Shown piece by piece: positions 3,335-32,000 of a stretch of DNA of 32,000 nucleotides; the first letter of the stretch is position 1; every line of letters begins with the position of its first letter. Under the pieces are notes generated by a model that saw only the letters and a list, made by a program, of their open reading frames with translations, was not told the origin of the DNA and searched no databases. This DNA is from a secondary endosymbiont of Trabutina mannipara (GTDB lineage Bacteria; Pseudomonadota; Gammaproteobacteria; Enterobacterales; Enterobacteriaceae), in assembly GCF_900090215.1 (NCBI RefSeq), contig NZ_LT594522.1:1-32000 (forward strand), given 5' to 3'. The position numbers and the translations under genes were made by a program.

Positions 3335-3544
3335 TTAGATTGTAGTTACATTAATCGCTGAAGGTCCTTTTTGACCATCTTGAATTTCAAATTCTACATT
3401 TTGACCTTCAACTAAAGTTTTAAAACCATTACTTTGAATAGCAGAAAAGTGAACAAATACATCCTTACTACCATCATTTGGAGTAATAAAACCAAATCCT
3501 TTTGATTCATTAAACCATTTTACTTGACCTTTAATTTTTGCCAT
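3335..3544 (-). CDS. cspC: Cold-shock-domain protein, CspC-like
   Basis: The 69-aa [61 protein letters not shown] is almost identical to E. coli CspC as I recall it. It is closer to CspC than to CspE. Confidence 0.85.
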
Positions 3545-3810
3545 TTTTATATTTCCTTTTAATTATTTTAATCGCATTTTTGCGATAAAAAAGAAAAAAC
3601 TAAATTTTTTATAAAAATATAAATATACAAAAAAGTAATAAAATTATTTATATGTAAAATTTTATATTTTAAATATATAAAAATTATATCTAGTTTTATC
3701 TAACTGCGTTATCACATAATATGTAAATAATGGCAAGTGATTTTTAATCAAAGATTAATATTATTTTATTTATATTTATTATTTTTTACAATCATTAAGG
3801 ATTAATATTT

Positions 3811-4612
3811 ATGAATTATTTATGAAAATTATGTATTTTAGTAACAGGTATTGCTAATAATAGTTCAATTGCTTATTGTTTTGCTATATGAAAAGGTGCA
3901 TAGCTTGCATTTTCTTATCAAGAAATAAATTTAAATTAAGATTATAAAAATTTGCTGCTAATTTAAATTCTATTTTTAATTCTTTAATTCTATTTTTTAA
4001 TTTCTAGTATTACCATGTGATGTAACAACAAATACAAGTAGATACAAGTATTAAAAAATGATTTAATAGTCTTGCATATATTTGGGTAAAATTTGATTAT
4101 TTTGTACATTATATATCTTAATCTTATGTTCCTAAAACACAATTAGATAGTGACTATGTTAATTAATCGTGAAAGTTTTATTATTACACACGATATTAGT
4201 TCTTATAGTTTTGTAGTTATGGCTAAAGCTAGTAGGTCAATGCTTAAATCTTCTCTAATTACATTTGACTTCTATACATTTGACTTCTATAGGAGCTGAA
4301 CGTACTATTATAATGGGCTGAGGGCTGACTGAGTTAAATCATTATATGGCAATGCTATGGGTCCACATAATATTCAAATTAATGCTATTTATGTAGGTCA
4401 TGTACTTTATCTGCATTAGGTATAAAAAAAGTTTTTAAAATATATCTTATTATAAATCAGTAACACCCATTAGGAATTTAATTTGATGATATTGGTTTTT
4501 CTGCTTTTTATGTTCAAATTTATCAACAGGAATAACTGGAGAAATCATACATGTAGAAGATGGAGGTTTAAATTCAATTGCTATGATGAATTTATTAGAA
4601 TTTATTAGATAA
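3811..4612 (+). pseudogene. fabI: Enoyl-ACP reductase FabI pseudogene with many in-frame stops and frameshifts
   Basis: Recognisable FabI segments survive in shifting frames: ILVTGIANNSSIAY, LAFSYQ, HDISSYSFVVMAKA, GAERTI, VTPIR and TGEIIHVEDGGLNSIAMMNLLE. TGA, TAG and TAA codons interrupt the reading frame from codon 5 onward. There is also a 15-bp internal tandem duplication at 4261-4290. Confidence 0.85.
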
Positions 4613-4739
4613 ATAATTCATTTATTAAAAATAATTTATATCATTAGCTATTAAAATGAAATGCAATTTATTATTTTTTTTATTAGATTATTTAGATTAG
4701 AATTAAATTATTATAAATCTATATAAAAAAATAAAAAAT

Positions 4740-4769
4740 AGATTTAATTATAATAGATTTAATTATAAT
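4740..4769. repeat. Perfect tandem duplication of a 15-bp unit (agatttaattataat x2)
   Basis: Read directly at 4740-4754 and 4755-4769, in the spacer between the fabI pseudogene and the topA 3' end. Confidence 0.9.
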
Positions 4770-4908: not shown

Positions 4909-7124
4909 CTAAAGTGTAGCTATATCGCTTTTACTTAAAATTTTTATGGTATTTTTACAAGTATCATTGATACACAACATATAATTTCCAAAACAACCTT
5001 GTTTTAAATACATATTATAGCTACATTTTTTACATTTTGTTGTTATAATATGATTTAAATTACTTTTTTTAATTTTATATCCATTACATAATGGATTTTT
5101 ACCACAAATATAAAAAATATTATGTTGACCGTAAATAATATAACAATCCATAATTGTATTGCAATTATGACAATATTGCTGAGGTAATAATATATCTTTT
5201 TTAAGATTAAAATTTTTAATTATATTTAAAATTTCTAATTTTGGAATTAAATTAATAGTATTTTTGCATTTTTCTTTTATATTCATAGTATAACTGGAAC
5301 AACCAAGAAAAACACCAGTACTAGTAGTACAAATCATCATTTTCTTTTTACAGATTGAACAATCAATATCAGTAATTACTGATTTATTTAATTGCATACC
5401 ACCATCTTTAGGATCTTTTTTAGCAATTTCTAATTTTTGTAAAAATTTTTTAAAAAAAATATTTAATACATTTTTCCAATATTGTTGATTAATAGCTATT
5501 AAATCAAGATTATTTTCCATTTTAGCAGTAAAATCATAACTAATTAATTCATTAAAACTTTCTTCTAATCTATCTGTTACTATTTCTCCTATTTTTTTTG
5601 CATAAAAACGATTATCTATTGTATGTACATATCCACGATTTTTAATTGTAGTGATAATTGATACATATGTAGATGGTCTACCAATACCTTTTTTTTCAAG
5701 TTCTTTTACTAAAGATGCTTCACAATAACGAACAGGAGGTTTAGTAAAACATTGATTAGGTATTAATTTAATAAGTTTTAATTTTTCTCCTATTTTTAAT
5801 ATTGGTAATATTTTATCGTTATAATGTTGGCCTAACAAAGGCATAATTTTAATCCATCCATCAAAAAGCAATGTTCTACCAGAAGTATGCAATTTAAAAT
5901 TATCAGCTTTTACAGTAATATTAATAAAATTATATTTTGCTGACATCATTTGACAAGCAATAAATTGATTAAATATTAAGTTATATAAGTTTTGTGCATC
6001 TAATTTTAGATTTTTTATTTTTTTTTCTGAGATAATATTAATGTAAGAAGGACGAATTGCTTCATGTGCTTCTTGAAGATTATTTTTATTAGTATATTTT
6101 CTTTCTTTTTTTGAAAGATAAGATTTTCCGAAAACTTTTAAAATATATTCACGTGCCATATTAATAGCATCTTGACTTAAATGAGTAGAGTCAGTACGCA
6201 TATAAGTAATATAACCAGCTTCATATAATTGTTGTGCTAATAACATAGTTTTTTTTATATTATAATTAAGACGAACATTAGCTGCTTGTTGTAGTGTGGC
6301 AGTAGTAAATGGTGCACTTGGTTTACTAAAAGTAATTTTTTCAAAACTATTAATGACAAAAAAATCTATTTTTTTTAATATATCTATTGCTAATTTAATT
6401 TTATTTTTATTTTTAGGTTTAAATATTTTTTCTTTTTTATGTGTTACTTGTAGTGTTAATGGTAAATTTTTAGAATTTTTTAGATAAGCATATAATTTAT
6501 AATATTCTTCTGAAACAAATGATTTAATTTTACGTTCTCTTTCTACTACTAATTTAACAGCTACTGATTGAACTCGTCCTGCTGACAAGCCACGTGATAT
6601 TTTTTTACATAATAGAGGAGAAATCATATATCCTATTATGCGATCCATAAATCTTCTTGTTTGTTGAGCATTTACATAGTTAATATTTAATTTTTTAGTA
6701 AATTTAAATGCTTTTATAATTGCATTATGGGTAATTTCATTAAATACTACTCTACTAAAATTAGTATTATTACCACCTATTACTTTACGTAAATGCCAAG
6801 CTATTGCTTCTCCTTCACGATCTAAATCAGTTGCTAAATAAATATGATTTACTTCTTTAGCAATTTTTTTTAATTCAATAATTATTTTTTCTTTACCAGG
6901 TAAAATTTCATATGAAGCATTCCATTCATTAAATGGATCAATTCCTATTTGATTAAATAATAATTTATGTGAATTTAATTTTGTTTTTTTTTATAATTTA
7001 AATTTTTTTGTGATAAATCACGGATATGACCAAAGCTAGATTTTACTATATATTCTTCTCCTAAATATTTATTTATTGTTTTAGCTTTAGCAGGAGATTC
7101 AACAATAACTAAGAATTTATTCAT
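4909..7124 (-). CDS. topA: DNA topoisomerase I, interrupted by a frameshift in an A9 tract, so either rescued by slippage or a very young pseudogene
   Basis: The ATG at 7124 opens [37 protein letters not shown]..., the TopA Toprim N-terminus, and this frame stops at codon 50 (6977-6975). A second frame opens at 6990 and encodes ...[20 protein letters not shown]...[17 protein letters not shown]...[10 protein letters not shown], running into the listed 579-aa ORF (4909-6648). That ORF carries the catalytic region and three Cys4 zinc-ribbon motifs. The span is 2216 nt, one short of a multiple of three. Confidence 0.88.
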
Positions 7125-7145
7125 TATAATTTTATTTACCTTTAT

Positions 7146-7369
7146 TCATAGCCTATAATCTACGAAATTCATGATTCCTTCTGGACGGATAACATTATAT
7201 ATACCATTAATTGAAATAATTTTTTTAAAAAGTTATTTTAAAAAAGCAGCTTTACCATCTTTAAGTTGCACACTATTTATACATTTATACGAAGTAAATA
7301 ATCAAAAATAGTTTTTCTGCCTTTTAGATAAGGTATGGGATGTACAAATTTACCCTTTGGGTTTATGAT
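7146..7369 (-). pseudogene. rluB: Short degraded relic resembling 23S rRNA pseudouridine synthase RluB (YciL)
   Basis: Minus-strand fragments GRKTIFDYL, LKDGKAAFLK and INGIYNVIRPEG..VDYRL resemble RluB segments GRPTVFDRL, LEDGPAAFKT and INQWYNVTLTEGRNREVRRL. The position between topA and trpE matches E. coli gene order. It is higher in GC than the surrounding spacer. Only about 70 codons remain and the frame is broken. Confidence 0.4.
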
Positions 7370-7576
7370 AAACTATCATACGATAAACTATATTTTAATT
7401 TTATAATATAAATTTAAAATATAAATTTTAAATTAATCTCAATACGATCACCTAAATTAGCTTTATAGCTTTATTTTTGTTTAAGAATGTCTTTGTTTTA
7501 AAATTTTTTATTTTTTTATACTAAATTTTTTATTGTAAATATGCTATTATAAATAAAAAATAATCTTAAAAGAAAA

Positions 7577-9154
7577 ATGTTAAATAATAATATAGAAGTT
7601 TTATATGCAAGAGCTAATTATAATACTAATTCTATAGCTATATTTAATAAATTGTGTGGTAATCGTCCTGCAACACTTTTATTGGAATCAGCTGAAATTG
7701 ATAAAAAAAATGATATTGAAAGTATAATAATAATTGATAGTGCACTACGTATTACATCTTTGGGTCAAACTGTTATAATTAAAGCTATAAGTAGAAATGG
7801 TTATGCACTATTATTACAATTAAAAAATATTTTACCTAAAACTATAAAAATAATTAATTATCAATTTAGTATGAAATTATTATTTCCATTAATTGACAAA
7901 AATCTTGATGAAGATGCTAGATTACGTTCGTTATCAGTATTTGATTGTCTACGTTCTTTACTAAAATTAGTAAACCAACCTCCAAATATGCCTAAAGCAA
8001 TGTTTTTTGGTGGATTATTTTCCTACGATCTTATATCAGTATTTGAAAATATACCAATTTTACAACAAAAACAGCATTGCCCTGATTATTGTTTTTATCT
8101 AGCTGAAACATTATTAACTATTAATCATCAGCAAAAAAACTGTGAATTACAGTGTAGTCTTTTTAGATCTAGTTTAACTGAAAAAAATCGTTTGCAACAT
8201 CGACTTAAAGAATTACAATATCAAATTAATCAATCACCAGAATTAATACAACATCAAATTATTGATAATATGAAGTTAACATACAACCATAGTAATGAAG
8301 AATATCGAAAAATTATACGTTGTATGCAACAAAAAATTATAAAAGGAGAAATTTTTCAAGTAGTACCATCACGACGATTTTTTCTTCCTTGTCCTTCAAC
8401 ACTTGCTGCATATTCTACATTAAAGAATATTAACCCTAGTCCATATATGTTTTATATGCAAGATAATGAATTTACTCTTTTTGGTGCTTCACCAGAAAGG
8501 TCTTTAAAATATGATCCTAATACAAGACAAATTGAAATATGCCCTATTGCTGGAACTAGGATACGTGGTCGTCATATTGATGGAACATTAGATGTTGATC
8601 TTGATAGCCGTATTGAGCTAAATATGCGTTCTGATCATAAAGAACTTGCAGAACATTTAATGTTAGTAGATCTTGCACGTAATGACTTAGCTCGTATTTG
8701 TGATCCAGGTACTAGATATGTAGCTGATTTAATTAAAGTTGATCGTTATTCTTTTGTCATGCATTTAGTTTCTAGGGTAATAGGAAAATTAAGATCTGAT
8801 TTAGATATGCTACATGCATATCTAGCTTGTATGAATATGGGTACACTTAGTGGAACACCAAAAATACGAGCAATGCAAATAATCGCTGAAGTAGAAGGTG
8901 AACGTAGGGGTAGTTATGGAGGTGCTATTGGTTACTTTACTGCTACAGGAATATTAGATACTTGTATTGTTATTCGTTCTGCTTATGTTGAGAATAATAT
9001 TGCTACTGTCCAATCAGGAGCTGGTATAGTATTGGATTCAATTCCACAAAATGAAGTTGATGAAAGTATTAATAAAGCTCGCGCTGTTTTACATGCTATT
9101 GCTACTGCACATGAAGCAAAGGATATTTTAAATGGCAGATATTTTACTACTTGA
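7577..9154 (+). CDS. trpE: Anthranilate synthase component I
   Basis: The 525-aa ORF carries chorismate-binding motifs ([43 protein letters not shown]) and matches E. coli TrpE in length. Its last 23 nt overlap trpG. Confidence 0.93.
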
Positions 9155-9710
9155 TAATATTGATTCATTTACTTATAATTTAGTAGATCAGCTTCGTGCC
9201 TCTAATCATAGAGTGATAATTTATCGAAATAATCTTCCTACTTTTTTTATTATAAAAGAAATTTTAAAAATTAAAAATCCAATTTTAATTTTATCTCCAG
9301 GACCAGGAATTCCTTCTCAAGCTGGTTGTATGTTAGAATTACTTACAAAGTTACGTGGTAAATTGCCTATAATAGGAATTTGTTTGGGACATCAAGCAAT
9401 AATTTTATCTTATGGAGGATATATTGTTCAAGCAGACGAAATAATACATGGTAAAGCTTCTTTAATTAATCACGATAATCAAGATATGTTTGCTGGGATG
9501 TCAAATCCACTTTTAGTAGCACGTTATCATTCTTTTATAGGAAAAGATATACCATCATCACTAACTATCAATGCTAATTATAATAATATAGTTATGGCAA
9601 TACGTAATAATAATGATAGAATATGTGGTTTTCAGTTTCATCCTGAATCTATTTTAACTACTCAAGGAACTCATTTATTAAATAATACAATTTTATGGGC
9701 TCTTTCGTAA
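9132..9710 (+). CDS. trpG: Anthranilate synthase component II (glutamine amidotransferase only, no fused phosphoribosyltransferase domain)
   Basis: [22 protein letters not shown]...SPGPG.PS.AGCM...GICLGHQAI...[10 protein letters not shown] matches residues 1 to about 195 of the E. coli bifunctional TrpG-D protein. The ORF stops at the domain boundary after 192 aa. Confidence 0.92.
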
Positions 9711-9804
9711 AAAATTAATAATTAGTAATAAAATTAACAGTTGTTTAAAATATTATTCAAATTTTATTTGAAATACGTAATTTTTTAAAAGGATTTTAAA
9801 ATAG

Positions 9805-11169
9805 ATGAAAGATACAATACTTACTAAAATTATTAAAGATAAATATGAATGGATAACTAAACTTAAAAAATTATATCCATTAAAAAGTTTTAATCATAAA
9901 GTTAATCCTAGTACACGCAGTTTTTATCATGCAATTTCTGATAATAATAAAATAGAATTTATTCTAGAATGCAAAAAAGCATCGCCTTCTAAAGGAATTA
10001 TTTGTTCTGATTTTGATCCAATTAATATTGCCAGTATTTATCGACATTATGCTTCAGTAATTTCTGTACTAACAGAAGAAAAATATTTTAAAGGAAATTT
10101 AAATTTTTTAAGACAAGTAAGTCAGTCAATTAACCAACCAATATTATGTAAAGATTTTATTATTGATCCTTGGCAAATTTACTTAGCACGTTTATATCAA
10201 GCTGATGCTATTCTACTTATGTTATCTATTCTTAATGATGATAATTACTGTAAACTAGTGACAGTAGCACACCATTTAAATATGGGTATCTTAACTGAAG
10301 TTATCAACAATAAAGAACGTAATCGTGCAATTTCATTAAAAGCAAAAGTAATAGGCATTAACAATCGTGATTTAAGATATTTATCTATTAATTTAAACAG
10401 AATTAATGTTTTAAGTCCAAAATTACCAGCAGATATAAATATTATAAGTGAATCTGGCATTACTATTTGTAATAAAGTACGTAAAATAAGTAACTATACT
10501 AATGGATTTTTAATTGGCAGTACTTTAATGGCTGAAACAAATTTAATAACATCTCTATTTAAGATCCTCTTAGGAGCAAATAAAGTTTGCGGTTTAACCC
10601 GTACTATAGATGCGCGAGCTTCCATAGAATCAGGAGCTATTTATGGTGGACTTATTTTTATTCCAGGTACCCCAAGAGTTATAAATGAAAACATTGCCCA
10701 AAATATTATTTCTAGTGCTGCATTGCATTATGTAGGAGTATTTAGTAATAATTCAATCAAAAAAATTGTAAATATTACTACTAAATTAGCAATATCAATT
10801 TTACAACTACATGGCAATGAAAATCAAAATTATATTGATATATTAAATCAATATTTAGTATCAGATGGTTATCTTTGGAAAGTATTCGATATTTTTAATA
10901 TTATACTACCAATTAATAATTTATCTAAAATAGATCGCTATGTACTTGATAATGGTGGTGGAAGCGGTAAATCTTTTAATTGGTTACTCTTAAATGAAAT
11001 AAAATTAGATAATATTATGTTAGCTGGGGGATTAACTACAGCTAATTGTATAGCTGCAACACGTTTAGGATGTGCTGGAATTGATTTTAATTCCAAATTA
11101 GAAATTGAACCTGGTATTAAAGATCATAAAAAAATATCTACTGTATTTGATACATTACGTTCTTATTAA
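9805..11169 (+). CDS. trpC: Bifunctional indole-3-glycerol-phosphate synthase / phosphoribosylanthranilate isomerase
   Basis: The 454-aa ORF is colinear over its full length with E. coli TrpC(F). Shared segments include [53 protein letters not shown] and QLHGNE. Confidence 0.92.
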
Positions 11170-14844: not shown

Positions 14845-14956
14845 TTTTTAATAACTTATCAAGTAATAAAATTTATATAAAAATTTGATTTATTATATAT
14901 AATTGTAGATTAATAAATAAAAAATTAATCTTTTTAACAAGATACGTACTACTAAT

Positions 14957-14986
14957 ATAATTAATTAATTTATAATTAATTAATTT
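14957..14986. repeat. Perfect tandem duplication of a 15-bp unit (ataattaattaattt x2)
   Basis: Read directly at 14957-14971 and 14972-14986, in the clsA/xthA spacer. Confidence 0.85.
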
Positions 14987-15000
14987 ATCGAATTTAGATT

Positions 15001-15034
15001 AGATTTATAATTATAGATAGATTTATAATTATAG
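15001..15034. repeat. Direct repeat agatttataattatag x2 separated by 2 nt
   Basis: Copies lie at 15001-15016 and 15019-15034, in the same spacer as the previous repeat. Confidence 0.85.
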
Positions 15035-15082
15035 TATGTTAAATAACATTTGTAAAAATAATAAAATTATATTTTCTCAAAT

Positions 15083-15892: not shown

Positions 15893-16140
15893 AATATTTT
15901 TTTAAAAAAAAAAGATTTAAGTATGTTTTTTATATTAGTCACTATAATTTTTTTGCAGTATCTGCAGTACTATTTTTTTACATTGTAAAAATAAATTAAA
16001 TTATTGATTTAATATTCTTAATAAAAAACTACTATTTTATGTAAAAAATGAACATATTATTATTAATGGTAAAATTATACGTTTTTTTTATGAAAAAATC
16101 ATCTATTTTTTTTACTAAAAATATTGGATTTTTTTTCCAT

Positions 16141-19237: not shown

Positions 19238-19400
19238 GTTATTTCTCCTTAAATATAATTTAATATAATCATATTTTTATTATAGAGCAATAAAACATAT
19301 TTTAGTTTCTAGTACAGATTGATAAAATCTCAGAATAATAAAAAAATATAATATCATCATTGCGAAAAAAAACAAGTTAGATACACATAATTGTATCGAT

Positions 19401-19430
19401 GATTATCGATGTTACGATTATCGATGTTAA
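19401..19430. repeat. Tandem duplication of a 15-bp unit (gattatcgatgttac / gattatcgatgttaa)
   Basis: Copies lie at 19401-19415 and 19416-19430 (14/15 identical). A nearby 10-bp unit tttttatatc is repeated at 19479-19498. Confidence 0.8.
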
Positions 19431-19647
19431 TTTTATCTAATAGAATAGATAATAATCTACGCTATTGCTATTTTACTTTTTTTATATCTTTTTATATCTA
19501 TTTTTTATATCCTTGTTTTTATAATAACGTTAATATTTATATTGATGCTAATAGTTCACTAACTTAATACAAAACAAAATATTTTCAATATAAACTATTG
19601 ATGATCGTGTATATAGTAATTTTAAAAAAAATTGAGAATATATAATT

Positions 19648-19994
19648 ATGAGTCAATTTTAAATTGTACCATTACATTTCAATGATTCAGCTGTCAATAA
19701 AGTTAAAAATATTATATCTAATGAAGATAATCATAATCTAAAATTAAGAGTATATGTTATAGTAGGTGGTTGTAGGGGCTTCAAGTATTGTTTTACTTTA
19801 GATGAGAAAGTAAATAAAAACGATATTATTTTTGAAAAAAAAGGTGTATATCTAATTATTGAAAATATAAGCTTATTATATCTTGCAGGTAGTTCAGTTG
19901 ATTATAGCGAAAATTTAGAAGGGTCTCGTTTTATAGTTATTAAACCTAATGCTCTAAGAATACATGCAATTGTGGATTATCATTTAGTATTTGA
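19648..19994 (+). pseudogene. erpA: Fe-S cluster insertion protein ErpA (HesB/IscA family) pseudogene
   Basis: The translation [52 protein letters not shown]...[20 protein letters not shown] tracks E. coli ErpA closely. Codon 5 is TAA. A 1-nt deletion near 19955 moves the conserved C-terminus [10 protein letters not shown] (E. coli TCGCGSSFSI*) into another frame. Confidence 0.8.
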
Positions 19995-20055
19995 TACTAT
20001 TTTAAGTAAATCTAAATTTTAGTAATAAAAAAACTGTTTTTACCAGGAGATAATT

Positions 20056-26767: not shown

Positions 26768-26914
26768 ATAAATTTTAAAATTTAAGATTAGTATAAATTT
26801 TTCTATTTAACGATAGAATAAAATTAAAATTAGTCCTATACTAATAATATTGACAATAATACACATAATATATAAAACCTCTTTTTTTTATCTCTTTTTT
26901 TATATTTTATTGTT

Positions 26915-27291
26915 ACTTCTAAGACCTTAGGTGAACGAGGGAGGAATCAGTACTCTATCATCTACATAAAAATCAAGACCGCAAAACAAAAGACACAAGA
27001 TATATTAGTCAAGTACAGAACAGGAATACGTTCTTTAATTCTACTTTAATTCTAAAGTAATTCTAAGTATAACTTTTTAAACCAAAAGGATGCGTTTTCT
27101 ATAAGTTAATCTTGCAGTATATATTTCTATTGGTAAATCTAATGGAAGAAAAAAACTTGATAACACCAAGTGCCAATGCTTCATCCCAAGGATTGTCGGT
27201 ACCATGACCATAATAAATATGTGCAGAATTAAATGTACTAAACGCCCAGCGCAGCATATACTATTTCAGTTATACAAATTTTATTACTCAT
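26915..27291 (-). pseudogene. prmB: Ribosomal protein L3 glutamine methyltransferase PrmB (YfcB) pseudogene; N-terminal remnant only
   Basis: Minus-strand fragments [40 protein letters not shown] and FYVDDRVLIP match E. coli PrmB ([50 protein letters not shown]). They sit in three different frames with stops between them. The SAM-dependent methyltransferase domain is absent. Confidence 0.75.
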
Positions 27292-27351
27292 TTTTCATAA
27301 ATAAATGTTAAAATGTGTAGTAAATTTTTTCATCATTACTATTTTTTGTTT

Positions 27352-29719: not shown

Positions 29720-32000
29720 TTATAATTTAATTCCATTAGAACGTAGATTCTTTAATATTTCAACTAAAAGTTCACTTTTAGTTGAAGCTACTATACGTGA
29801 ACTTCTAACAAATCCAGTTATACTAAGTACTATACCAGCAGAATTTAATTGGCTAAATGTTACTGACGGAGTTGGTGTAACTTGAATTTCTTTATGTTTA
29901 TTATAAACTTCTAAAAGAAGCATGCATACCTTTTCTGTATTAATATCTAGTGAAAATGTTAATTCAATAGTAACTACACCTTGAGCGTTGCCCATAGTAA
30001 TATTACGTACATTTTGGGAAATTAACTGAAAATTAGGTACGATAACTGTTGATCGGTCATTAATTTTGATTTCTGTAGCACGTATATTGATACAACGTAT
30101 ATCTCCTTCTATACCACTAATACTAATTAAATCTCCTACTTTTACTTTTTGCTCTATTAATAAAATTAAACCTGAAATAAAATTTTTTACAATCTCTTGT
30201 AAACCAAAACCAATTCCTACTGTTAGTGCACTAACGATCCAAGCTATATTATCCCATTTAATACCTAAAATAGCTAGTAAAATAAAAATTACTAATACAT
30301 ATACAAAATTACTAAATAATGTTACTAAAGAGTAACGTATTCCAGGTTCTATCATAGTTTTTGTTAAAAAATCTTTTTCTAACCAATTTTTAATTAAACG
30401 TAGGATATATATCGCAATAGCAAAAAATATAAGTGCATTTAGTATATTAGCAGGAACAACAAGTTTTTCGAATACTCCACAGAGTTTAATAACTTTAGGT
30501 ATTAAAGTTAATGGTGTTATATATTCAAAATTACCATTAATTAACGCTATTATAGCAAACATAATTAGTAATATTTTGCTAATAGCTGTAAGTAAAGTAG
30601 AAATTTGTAATAAATGTCGTTCTTCAATATTGAACATATGTTTAATACGCACTCCTATTAAAGTATTAGGAGTAAATACACTTTCGAAGAAATCTACCAT
30701 AAAATGCATTAATAAATAAAAAATAAATAAAACCATAGCAATCCAAACTAATTCATAAGTTAAAAAACGGGCTAGCGATATATAACCTATGAGTAAAGAA
30801 ATAAAAATAGTGATAGAAAAGGTAAAAATACATATTTGTATAATATCTACTATAGCTGAATTTATTTCAATTTTAGATTTTATTGATCGTAAATTTAATT
30901 GAGTACTTTTAATTCTAATTTTAGAAAAACATATAAATAATATAACTGATGTTATCAGCAACGATGATATTCCGTATCCCCAAATAGTTGTAGATACGCT
31001 AGTACTAAGACTACTGTTTAACTGTTCAATAGTACCTGAAATAAAAACTAAAATAGCTAATAATATTGGTATTTTTTTTATTTTATGATATATAGCATCA
31101 TGGATAGTTAAAAACTGCGAATATGAACAATTTTTAGATAAAAAAGCTCTACCGAGACCAAATATCAATGAAGAAAAAAATATTAAACATTTTATACCAT
31201 CAGCAAAATCTATTACTTCATAAGATACATTAGGTAAACTTGTTACCATTAAATAAAATAATTGAGCACCTAAGCTTATATTTAGTACTGTTATTAGTAC
31301 AGTAGAGCAAACTATAAAACTACAATGCATCCGTTCAGGAAGCATATTAATACTGAACCAAAATAATAATTTATCTAAAAAAAGTGAGCTACAAAACCAT
31401 AATATTATCGTTAATACCAATAATATACTAGATACCAAAATAAAGTCAGAAGACCAAGCTTGTTGCCAACATAGATTAATATTATTAACTAAACTAGTTA
31501 TACGATGTTTATCTTCTAACTTAGGATGTAATATAGGTGACCAAAAATTTGCCGAAAAAATACTACCAGAATTAAGAATTAATTGAGATAGTATATTATT
31601 ACGATGGATAGTAACTATTTGTACTAAAATTTTATTAGCACTAAAAATAATAAATTTAGCACATTCTATTTGATTATCTAATAGTTTTTTACGTGCATTG
31701 ATGTTATCACGACTATATGCAATAGTACTAGTTTCTTTCACAAAAGAAGTTGGTGTAGGTCCTATAACATCTAATTGTACCTGCAACTGTGTACTATCAG
31801 GTAGTAATCTAGTAATAAGTGTCTCAGCAGCACTAGTTAACTGTAAAGTATTAGTATTTAAAATACTTAATTGATTATTTGTTATATTTTTTGATAATTT
31901 TTGTTTTAGTAAATCTAGATCTTTTTGTAATTTACTTATTTCAATTACCGCATTAAGCTTTAATGGTATAGAAGCGCCTAGTGTATTTGCACTTGCTGTA
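29720..32000 (-). CDS. Large MscS-family mechanosensitive channel (MscK/MscM/YbiO-like), 5' end beyond the window
   Basis: The C-terminal region has the MscS core (...GFGLQEIVKNFISGLILLIEQKVKVGDLISI.GIEGDI..INIRATEI...DRSTVIVPN). About 10 predicted TM helices lie upstream of it. The reading frame stays open from the listed TTG start at 31786 to position 32000, encoding a coiled-coil-like segment (...LKLNAVIEISKLQKDLDLLKQKL...). The true start is therefore off-window. Confidence 0.75.
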   Translation of the reverse strand, partial: TASANTLGASIPLKLNAVIEISKLQKDLDLLKQKLSKNITNNQLSILNTNTLQLTSAAETLITRLLPDSTQLQVQLDVIGPTPTSFVKETSTIAYSRDNINARKKLLDNQIECAKFIIFSANKILVQIVTIHRNNILSQLILNSGSIFSANFWSPILHPKLEDKHRITSLVNNINLCWQQAWSSDFILVSSILLVLTIILWFCSSLFLDKLLFWFSINMLPERMHCSFIVCSTVLITVLNISLGAQLFYLMVTSLPNVSYEVIDFADGIKCLIFFSSLIFGLGRAFLSKNCSYSQFLTIHDAIYHKIKKIPILLAILVFISGTIEQLNSSLSTSVSTTIWGYGISSLLITSVILFICFSKIRIKSTQLNLRSIKSKIEINSAIVDIIQICIFTFSITIFISLLIGYISLARFLTYELVWIAMVLFIFYLLMHFMVDFFESVFTPNTLIGVRIKHMFNIEERHLLQISTLLTAISKILLIMFAIIALINGNFEYITPLTLIPKVIKLCGVFEKLVVPANILNALIFFAIAIYILRLIKNWLEKDFLTKTMIEPGIRYSLVTLFSNFVYVLVIFILLAILGIKWDNIAWIVSALTVGIGFGLQEIVKNFISGLILLIEQKVKVGDLISISGIEGDIRCINIRATEIKINDRSTVIVPNFQLISQNVRNITMGNAQGVVTIELTFSLDINTEKVCMLLLEVYNKHKEIQVTPTPSVTFSQLNSAGIVLSITGFVRSSRIVASTKSELLVEILKNLRSNGIKL

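Follow-up and report, generated by a model that had tools for sequence, protein, structure and literature searches.

The gene topA, which encodes DNA topoisomerase I (type IA), is divided between two reading frames in the DNA that we analyzed, the first 32,000 nucleotides of contig NZ_LT594522.1 (RefSeq assembly GCF_900090215.1, forward strand; hereafter the window) from a secondary endosymbiont of Trabutina mannipara, and the two frames meet at a run of nine A residues in the sense of the mRNA. The interpretation that we favor, with somewhat less than even confidence, is that the lesion is real and is partly corrected by slippage of RNA polymerase, so that topA would still be in use. The source of the window is most likely 'Candidatus Trabutinella endobia', a Sodalis-allied gammaproteobacterium that lives inside Tremblaya princeps, itself a symbiont of the manna mealybug T. 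mannipara, and has a genome of 298,471 bp (PMC5322300). The RpoD and TrpE proteins encoded in the window are 82% and 81% identical, respectively, to those of Ca. Mikella endobia, followed by those of Sodalis and other mealybug symbionts, and Mikella and Trabutinella have been grouped in one cluster (PMC11032189).

Translation of all frames of the minus strand places the start of topA at the ATG at 7124-7122, from which codons 1 to 44, ending at 6993, encode a TopA N-terminus; codons 45 to 47 are AAA AAA AAA and are followed by CAA AAT TAA, such that the open reading frame closes at 6977-6975 after 49 amino acids. The remainder of the protein is encoded in the -1 frame, which opens at 6990 because a TAA occupies 6993-6991, and spans 694 codons. 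Joining of the two frames is possible only within 6990-6978, that is, essentially inside the A run. This anatomy had been described in a preceding sequence-only reading, with an estimate of about 690 residues for the second frame and with the joining of the frames confined to the A9 run; we reproduced every coordinate of that description, together with its statement that there is no second lesion: when the 2.2 kb of topA were searched by translation for further stops or frame breaks, none was found beyond the one at the A9 run.

The addition of one A to the run yields a protein of 738 amino acids, of which residues 1-736 align in one stretch with Escherichia coli TopA (structures 9gda and 4rul; phmmer E = 4.7e-275). 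The proposed colinearity with the E. coli enzyme extends over residues 1-736 but ends at about residue 749 of the E. coli protein. The C-terminus of the symbiont protein lies after the third zinc ribbon, and the final ~116 residues of the E. coli enzyme, corresponding to domains D8-D9, have no counterpart; PF08272 and PF01396 are absent among the Pfam families recorded for the TopA of the window. The core motifs, namely the TOPRIM Glu, DxD(xE) and the active-site Tyr, are all present, and Glu9 is joined to the rest of the core only in the frame-corrected product. Mutation of the TOPRIM Glu abolishes both DNA cleavage and relaxation (PMC7587558). Only the frame-corrected fusion is predicted to be active, because a truncated form would lack Glu9 and the downstream frame contains no canonical start codon (ATG, GTG or TTG) before 6648.

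The part of the protein that is separated from the core by the break is not degraded. In an alignment with 119 homologues, where columns at least 95% conserved were counted as conserved, residues 1-37 keep 31 of the 33 highly conserved columns (94%), compared to 80% for the residues after the tract; conservation is lowest in the retained C-terminal region (4909-5360), where 65% of the conserved columns are kept. In the same alignment, the junction falls in a variable, Lys-rich loop between conserved TOPRIM elements, where relatives show KKKDKL, KKKNK, NKKRK and similar sequences; the corrected reading, KKKTKL, fits this pattern exactly. Runs of eight A are found at the homologous topA site in the AT-rich symbionts Hoaglandella (L052) and Pantoea edessiphila (L015). 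The ancestral state that the aligned sequences strongly imply would be an in-frame AAA AAA AAA ACA (A10), from which one A has been lost. The ratio of TopA divergence to TrpE divergence is 1.26 for Trabutinella, compared to 1.21 for Gullanella, 1.05 for Hoaglandella and about 0.65 between free-living relatives, and the constraint on Trabutinella TopA over most of its history has been that usual for a mealybug symbiont. Long-term relaxed selection on this protein was considered but is not supported, given that its ratio resembles those of other mealybug symbionts.

The position of the break is informative with regard to its origin. In topA, there are eight A/T runs that reach 8 nt or more, seven of them apart from the lesion site, and only one is broken; across the whole window, A/T runs of 9 nt or longer number five, of which four lie in genes, including two in topA. 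Because a random indel in topA would have only about a 0.8% chance of falling in a run of at least 9 nt (18 of 2216 nt), the location of the lesion points to an origin of the slippage type, through either replication slippage or a base-calling error. The coincidence with the A9 run on its own says nothing about rescue. The in-frame A9 in obgE at 2234-2242, which had been pointed out as an example of how common such tracts are in this genome, is indeed present.

What speaks for rescue is, first, that topA carries a single, repairable lesion while the flanking fabI and rluB genes are heavily eroded. Dead genes in this genome decay visibly: the fabI pseudogene (enoyl-ACP reductase) is recognizable by comparison with the intact Mikella gene (927 aligned nt with 70% identity, E = 1.7e-110; E = 1e-17 by tblastn), and topA is three times longer and yet has one lesion. 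Mikella (L053 9124-9873) and Hoaglandella (L052 267-1058) both have an intact rluB. Second, the insertion of one A that the break requires is the commonest product of slippage at A/T runs of at least 9 nt. The RNA:DNA hybrid of bacterial RNA polymerase measures 9-10 bp, and runs of nine A or T are sites of efficient slippage in vivo; in Thermus dnaX, a T9 run gives about 50% slippage that is used productively (PMC5009743). In Buchnera, nearly all transcriptional insertions consist of one base within an A/T run and become exponentially more frequent with run length (PMC5574713), and for frameshifted genes of Buchnera and Blochmannia, corrected transcripts amount to 12-50%, according to values quoted second-hand in PMC5009743.

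The course of events would then be as follows. An ancestral A10 lysine cluster would have been shortened by one A through slippage during replication, so that A9 remained and the frame shifted at codons 45-47. On the T9 template, the 9-bp RNA:DNA hybrid could slip back by one base without a mismatch, and a fraction of the topA transcripts would carry A10, with a smaller fraction possibly carrying A7 or A13. Normal translation of the slipped transcripts would produce a full-length TopA of 738 (or 737) amino acids, in which Glu9 is connected to the remaining enzyme, whereas unslipped transcripts would yield the 49-amino acid peptide only. Unstimulated -1 slippage of the ribosome on A_AAA_AAA might make a minor contribution of the same protein. 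The supply of TopA would be reduced but not nil, and the gene would be functional and under selection despite the lesion. Any full-length TopA would more likely be made chiefly through slippage of RNA polymerase than of the ribosome. The sequence-only reading noted that rescue of poly(A) frameshifts had been reported in aphid and ant endosymbionts, and the anatomy of topA does fit the class published for Buchnera and Blochmannia; its proposal that this is the same phenomenon in an essential gene holds with respect to the anatomy, the run length of nine and the need for one additional A, but not with respect to the premise of essentiality. The features of topA and of its decayed neighbors are collected in Table 1.

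Table 1. Coordinates of the topA gene, its break and functional landmarks, and the flanking pseudogenes in the window
Feature	Position	Strand	Comment
topA (DNA topoisomerase I, type IA), whole gene in two frames	4909..7124	-	A run must gain 1 nt (or lose 2 nt) to give the 738-amino acid product
topA 5' segment, frame 0	6975..7124	-	ATG, 44 TopA codons, KKK, Q N stop
A9 homopolymer in mRNA sense (T9 on the plus strand)	6984..6992	-	candidate slippage site
TAA of the -1 frame	6991..6993	-	directly 5' of the A run; upstream limit of the joining window
topA 3' segment, -1 frame	4909..6990	-	694 codons to TAG 4911-4909
Second A9 in topA	6018..6026	-	in frame, unbroken
TOPRIM Glu9 codon (GAA)	7100-7098	-	5' segment (first strand and helix of the TOPRIM fold)
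DxDxE (D100-L-D-R-E), D100 codon	6828-6826	-	3' segment
Active-site Tyr308 (TYMRTD)	6204-6202	-	3' segment
Three Cys4 zinc ribbons, first Cys codons	5361, 5172, 5034	-	3' segment
fabI (enoyl-ACP reductase), eroded pseudogene	3773..4640	+	downstream of topA; at least 12 in-frame stops, at least 1 frameshift
rluB pseudogene remnant	7150..7462	-	immediately 5' of the topA start; contains stops (tblastn E = 2e-7); matched at the nucleotide level over 7125-7462

Several observations weigh against the rescue of topA by polymerase slippage. The Mikella locus around trpE (L053) is syntenic with the window, and at the site that corresponds to topA (L053 8832-9124), it contains only a 291-bp spacer between fabI and rluB, without any tblastn trace of topA; moreover, Mikella is missing from the TopA protein hits although, from the pattern seen with TrpE and RpoD, it would be expected as the top hit. 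Mikella has thus most likely lost topA, as judged from these searches, and this absence from the sister lineage, which sets the case apart from those of Buchnera and Blochmannia, argues against a strong necessity of the gene. Within Blochmannia, topA is lost in the symbionts of Camponotus, a pseudogene in B. obliquus and kept in B. turneri (PMC4389277). By analogy, topA appears to be dispensable in comparable symbionts, and the assertion that the gene is normally essential fails for endosymbionts because of the deletion in Mikella and the repeated losses in Blochmannia. The Trabutinella genome contains 27 pseudogenes and has been described as still shrinking (PMC5322300), and a transcriptome-wide study of Buchnera found no reading frame restored by transcription error (PMC5574713). 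No conspecific or congeneric topA with which the tract could be compared turned up in collections of genome contigs, metagenome contigs and proteins, where the best TopA match is 60% identical. Conservation of the frameshift across strains or species, in a gene under purifying selection, is said to be the key criterion for the rescue class (Wernegreen et al. 2010).

These same facts lend substance to the alternative that topA is a nascent pseudogene, with a real and recent one-base deletion in a gene that is no longer needed; any full-length TopA would be incidental and irrelevant, and erosion of the kind seen in fabI and rluB would follow. We regard this as a genuine possibility, and because of the losses in Mikella and Blochmannia, the 27 pseudogenes and the shrinking genome, a very young pseudogene and a maintained, slippage-rescued topA are about equally likely. 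Mikella, the closest relative, is syntenic and lacks the gene; the loss or pseudogenization in Blochmannia runs parallel; reduction of the Trabutinella genome is ongoing; the first lesions of endosymbiont genes are typically found in A/T homopolymers (background in PMC3017870); and TopA has already lost the C-terminal D8-D9 domains. However, topA has exactly one lesion even though seven further runs of 8 nt or more were available, whereas its neighbors, at a third of its length, have accumulated a dozen lesions or more. The start codon, the N-terminal fragment and all catalytic residues are intact, and the type of lesion, in which one A has to be added to a run of at least 9, is the one that is best corrected by slippage. 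Neither multiple lesions nor the loss of conserved residues, the marks of an eroding pseudogene, are seen in topA. Given one lesion in topA and many in fabI and rluB, any inactivation would be very recent relative to that of the neighbors.

The opposite possibility, that the A9 frameshift is a stably maintained state in which TopA is made only via slippage and the tract serves as an attenuator holding the TopA dose low, appears unlikely to us, and we are just as skeptical of the corollary that such a low dose would suit a replication and transcription apparatus that is itself degenerate.

A further rival, which we consider improbable, places the change in the data rather than in the gene: the true or majority tract would be A10 and the A9 an artefact of the assembly or consensus, or else A9 and A10 would coexist in pooled, polyploid symbionts. 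An A10 called as A9 is a classic homopolymer error, the DNA was pooled from the bacteriomes of 15-20 insects, an A10 tract would be in frame and reproduce exactly the KKKxKL pattern of the relatives, and the public annotation of topA, which gives 679 amino acids from ATA 6948-6946 or 665 amino acids from ATT 6906-6904 (P0001, P0121), leaves the frameshift unflagged. The main text of the genome paper (PMC5322300) makes no mention of topA, topoisomerase or homopolymers. However, the assembly was produced from these pooled bacteriomes with SPAdes using Illumina HiSeq reads at 1216-fold coverage (PMC5322300), and runs of 9-10 nt are rarely miscounted in a consensus of this kind; for this reason, a homopolymer miscall at the topA tract is unlikely, whereas a tract-length polymorphism in the pooled sample is possible. 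Nor is the assembly generally unreliable at homopolymers, because of the 25 A/T runs of 8 nt or longer that fall within genes of the window, 24 keep the frame, and the 27 other genes all match full-length family profiles.

Programmed -1 ribosomal frameshifting as the main route, without any part played by RNA polymerase, is very doubtful. In the 0 frame, the codons AAA AAA AAA do include a heptamer that formally qualifies as slippery (X_XXY_YYZ), the shift required is in the -1 direction, and the product would be identical to that of an A10 transcript (...NYKKKTKL...). Yet the stimulators that would be expected to accompany such a site were not found: the predicted fold of the 90 nt downstream is no better than that of shuffled sequences (minimum free energy of -12.7 vs a mean of -15.1 kcal/mol, z = +0.83), folding of 7030-6890 shows no helix near the site, and there is no Shine-Dalgarno-like element 10-15 nt upstream, where the sequence UCACAAAAAAAUUUAAAUUAU lacks such a motif. 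In addition, A_AAA_AAA is much less prone to shifting than A_AAA_AAG in E. coli (PMC5009743). Unstimulated ribosomal slippage may contribute a few percent.

Finally, a truncated or split enzyme, in which the 665- or 679-residue form initiated at ATT 6906 or ATA 6948 acts alone or together with the 49-amino acid peptide, agrees with the public annotation but is the most improbable of all, since such a form lacks the Glu9 without which cleavage and relaxation are lost, has no canonical start codon, leaves the strong conservation of the 44 upstream codons unexplained and is without a comparable split type IA topoisomerase in the searches made for this locus.

Apart from the break itself, the locus shows a pattern of reciprocal loss: Mikella keeps fabI and rluB and has deleted topA, while Trabutinella keeps topA and has pseudogenized fabI and rluB. 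This comparison is the most informative new element of the analysis. In Mikella, the gene order is tusBCD, tusA, rplU, rpmA, obgE, cspE, fabI, rluB, trpE, trpG, trpC, trpB, trpA, cls, hns, xthA, dsbB, tsaB, pcnB (L053). The 1.36-kb gap downstream of topA gave no match when it was searched by tblastn with the topA neighbors of Xenorhabdus and Pantoea and was resolved as the fabI pseudogene only through the Mikella comparison; remnants of fabGZI are mentioned in the paper on the Trabutinella genome (PMC5322300). Two tandem duplications of 15 nt are present in this spacer, one inside the pseudogene (4260-4289) and the other just past its end (4737-4766). A match to the Rfam cspA thermoregulator, below threshold, that was obtained in the search of the gap turned out to be an intact cspE/cspA-type cold-shock gene (3335-3544, minus strand), which encodes 69 amino acids with 94% identity to the Mikella protein.

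On the other side of topA, a tblastn match of Mikella RluB that runs into the N-terminal codons of topA (7169-6981) was rejected as a gappy, low-complexity over-extension; the actual rluB remnant terminates before the topA ATG is reached, and there is an in-frame stop at 7148-7146. Because this remnant lies directly upstream of the topA start, any topA promoter must lie in decayed rluB sequence. A promoter scan was uninformative, with 9 hits against 8.4 expected.

Elsewhere in the window, trpG is a stand-alone gene for a 192-amino acid amidotransferase located 94 bp from trpC(F) (window 9132-9805), and the trpD half of the enterobacterial trpGD fusion is gone, an arrangement also seen in Mikella (L053 11566-12278). 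Tryptophan synthesis is shared between the bacterial partners (PMC5322300), and TrpD is presumably supplied by Tremblaya. In Mikella, hns is located between cls and xthA (L053 17772-18191); the corresponding region of the window is a 238-bp spacer (14845-15082) without a tblastn trace of the gene, which has been deleted in the Trabutinella lineage. The longest homopolymer of the window is an intergenic T7A10 (15897-15913, plus strand) just after the xthA stop codon. An open reading frame for 688 amino acids with a TTG start (29720-31786, minus strand) matches MscK/MscM over the C-terminal ~270 residues only, whereas no profile match was obtained for the N-terminal ~400 residues; the channel gene may thus be truncated or in decay. 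Two spacers, 19238-20055 (~0.8 kb) and 26768-27351 (~0.6 kb), contain no open reading frame of at least 60 amino acids and no Rfam match and, by analogy, may hold eroded pseudogenes.

Rescue by slippage is already known in endosymbionts, including for genes of replication and translation, and topA is a further candidate case. If the rescue is real, a DNA-topology enzyme and a bacterium-in-bacterium symbiosis would join the short list of genes kept by polymerase infidelity, and public annotation would be missing such cases, with topA recorded as an N-terminally truncated gene without the catalytic Glu. If topA is instead a young pseudogene, the locus would capture the first step of gene loss; with either reading, the mechanism is known in principle and the gain is incremental. 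Were the tract an attenuator, a core DNA-topology enzyme would depend wholly on transcriptional infidelity while the sister lineage has dispensed with it.

Poly(A) frameshifts of endosymbionts are reportedly rescued by RNA polymerase slippage, as attributed to Tamas et al. 2008 and Wernegreen et al. 2010, and these cases in Buchnera and Blochmannia are close to topA. They share with it an AT-rich, reduced genome of an insect endosymbiont, a single indel in an A run of at least 9 in a gene that is otherwise intact, the requirement that the mRNA gain one A, and the involvement of information-processing genes, such as dnaX, dnaG and pth with poly(A) frameshifts in Blochmannia vafer (Williams & Wernegreen 2010, PMC3017870). 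The topA case differs from them in being known from sequence and in a single genome, and in its host system, an intrabacterial, Sodalis-allied symbiont in Tremblaya. Thermus thermophilus dnaX is similar in its run of nine, in the realignment of the RNA:DNA hybrid that adds A's and in the stops that lie close by in the alternative frames; however, the full-length Thermus product is encoded in frame and slippage makes a shorter product at a conserved 1:1 ratio, whereas in topA slippage would make the sole functional product, and there is no sign of programming. E. coli dnaX has in common with topA a slippery heptamer of Lys codons and the -1 direction but contains A_AAA_AAG, a Shine-Dalgarno-like element and a stem-loop, compared to A_AAA_AAA with neither stimulator in topA. 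The losses of topA in Mikella, in the Blochmannia of Camponotus and in B. obliquus concern the same gene in the same type of genome under reductive evolution; Trabutinella differs from all of them in that its topA keeps the complete conserved coding capacity, with one repairable lesion.

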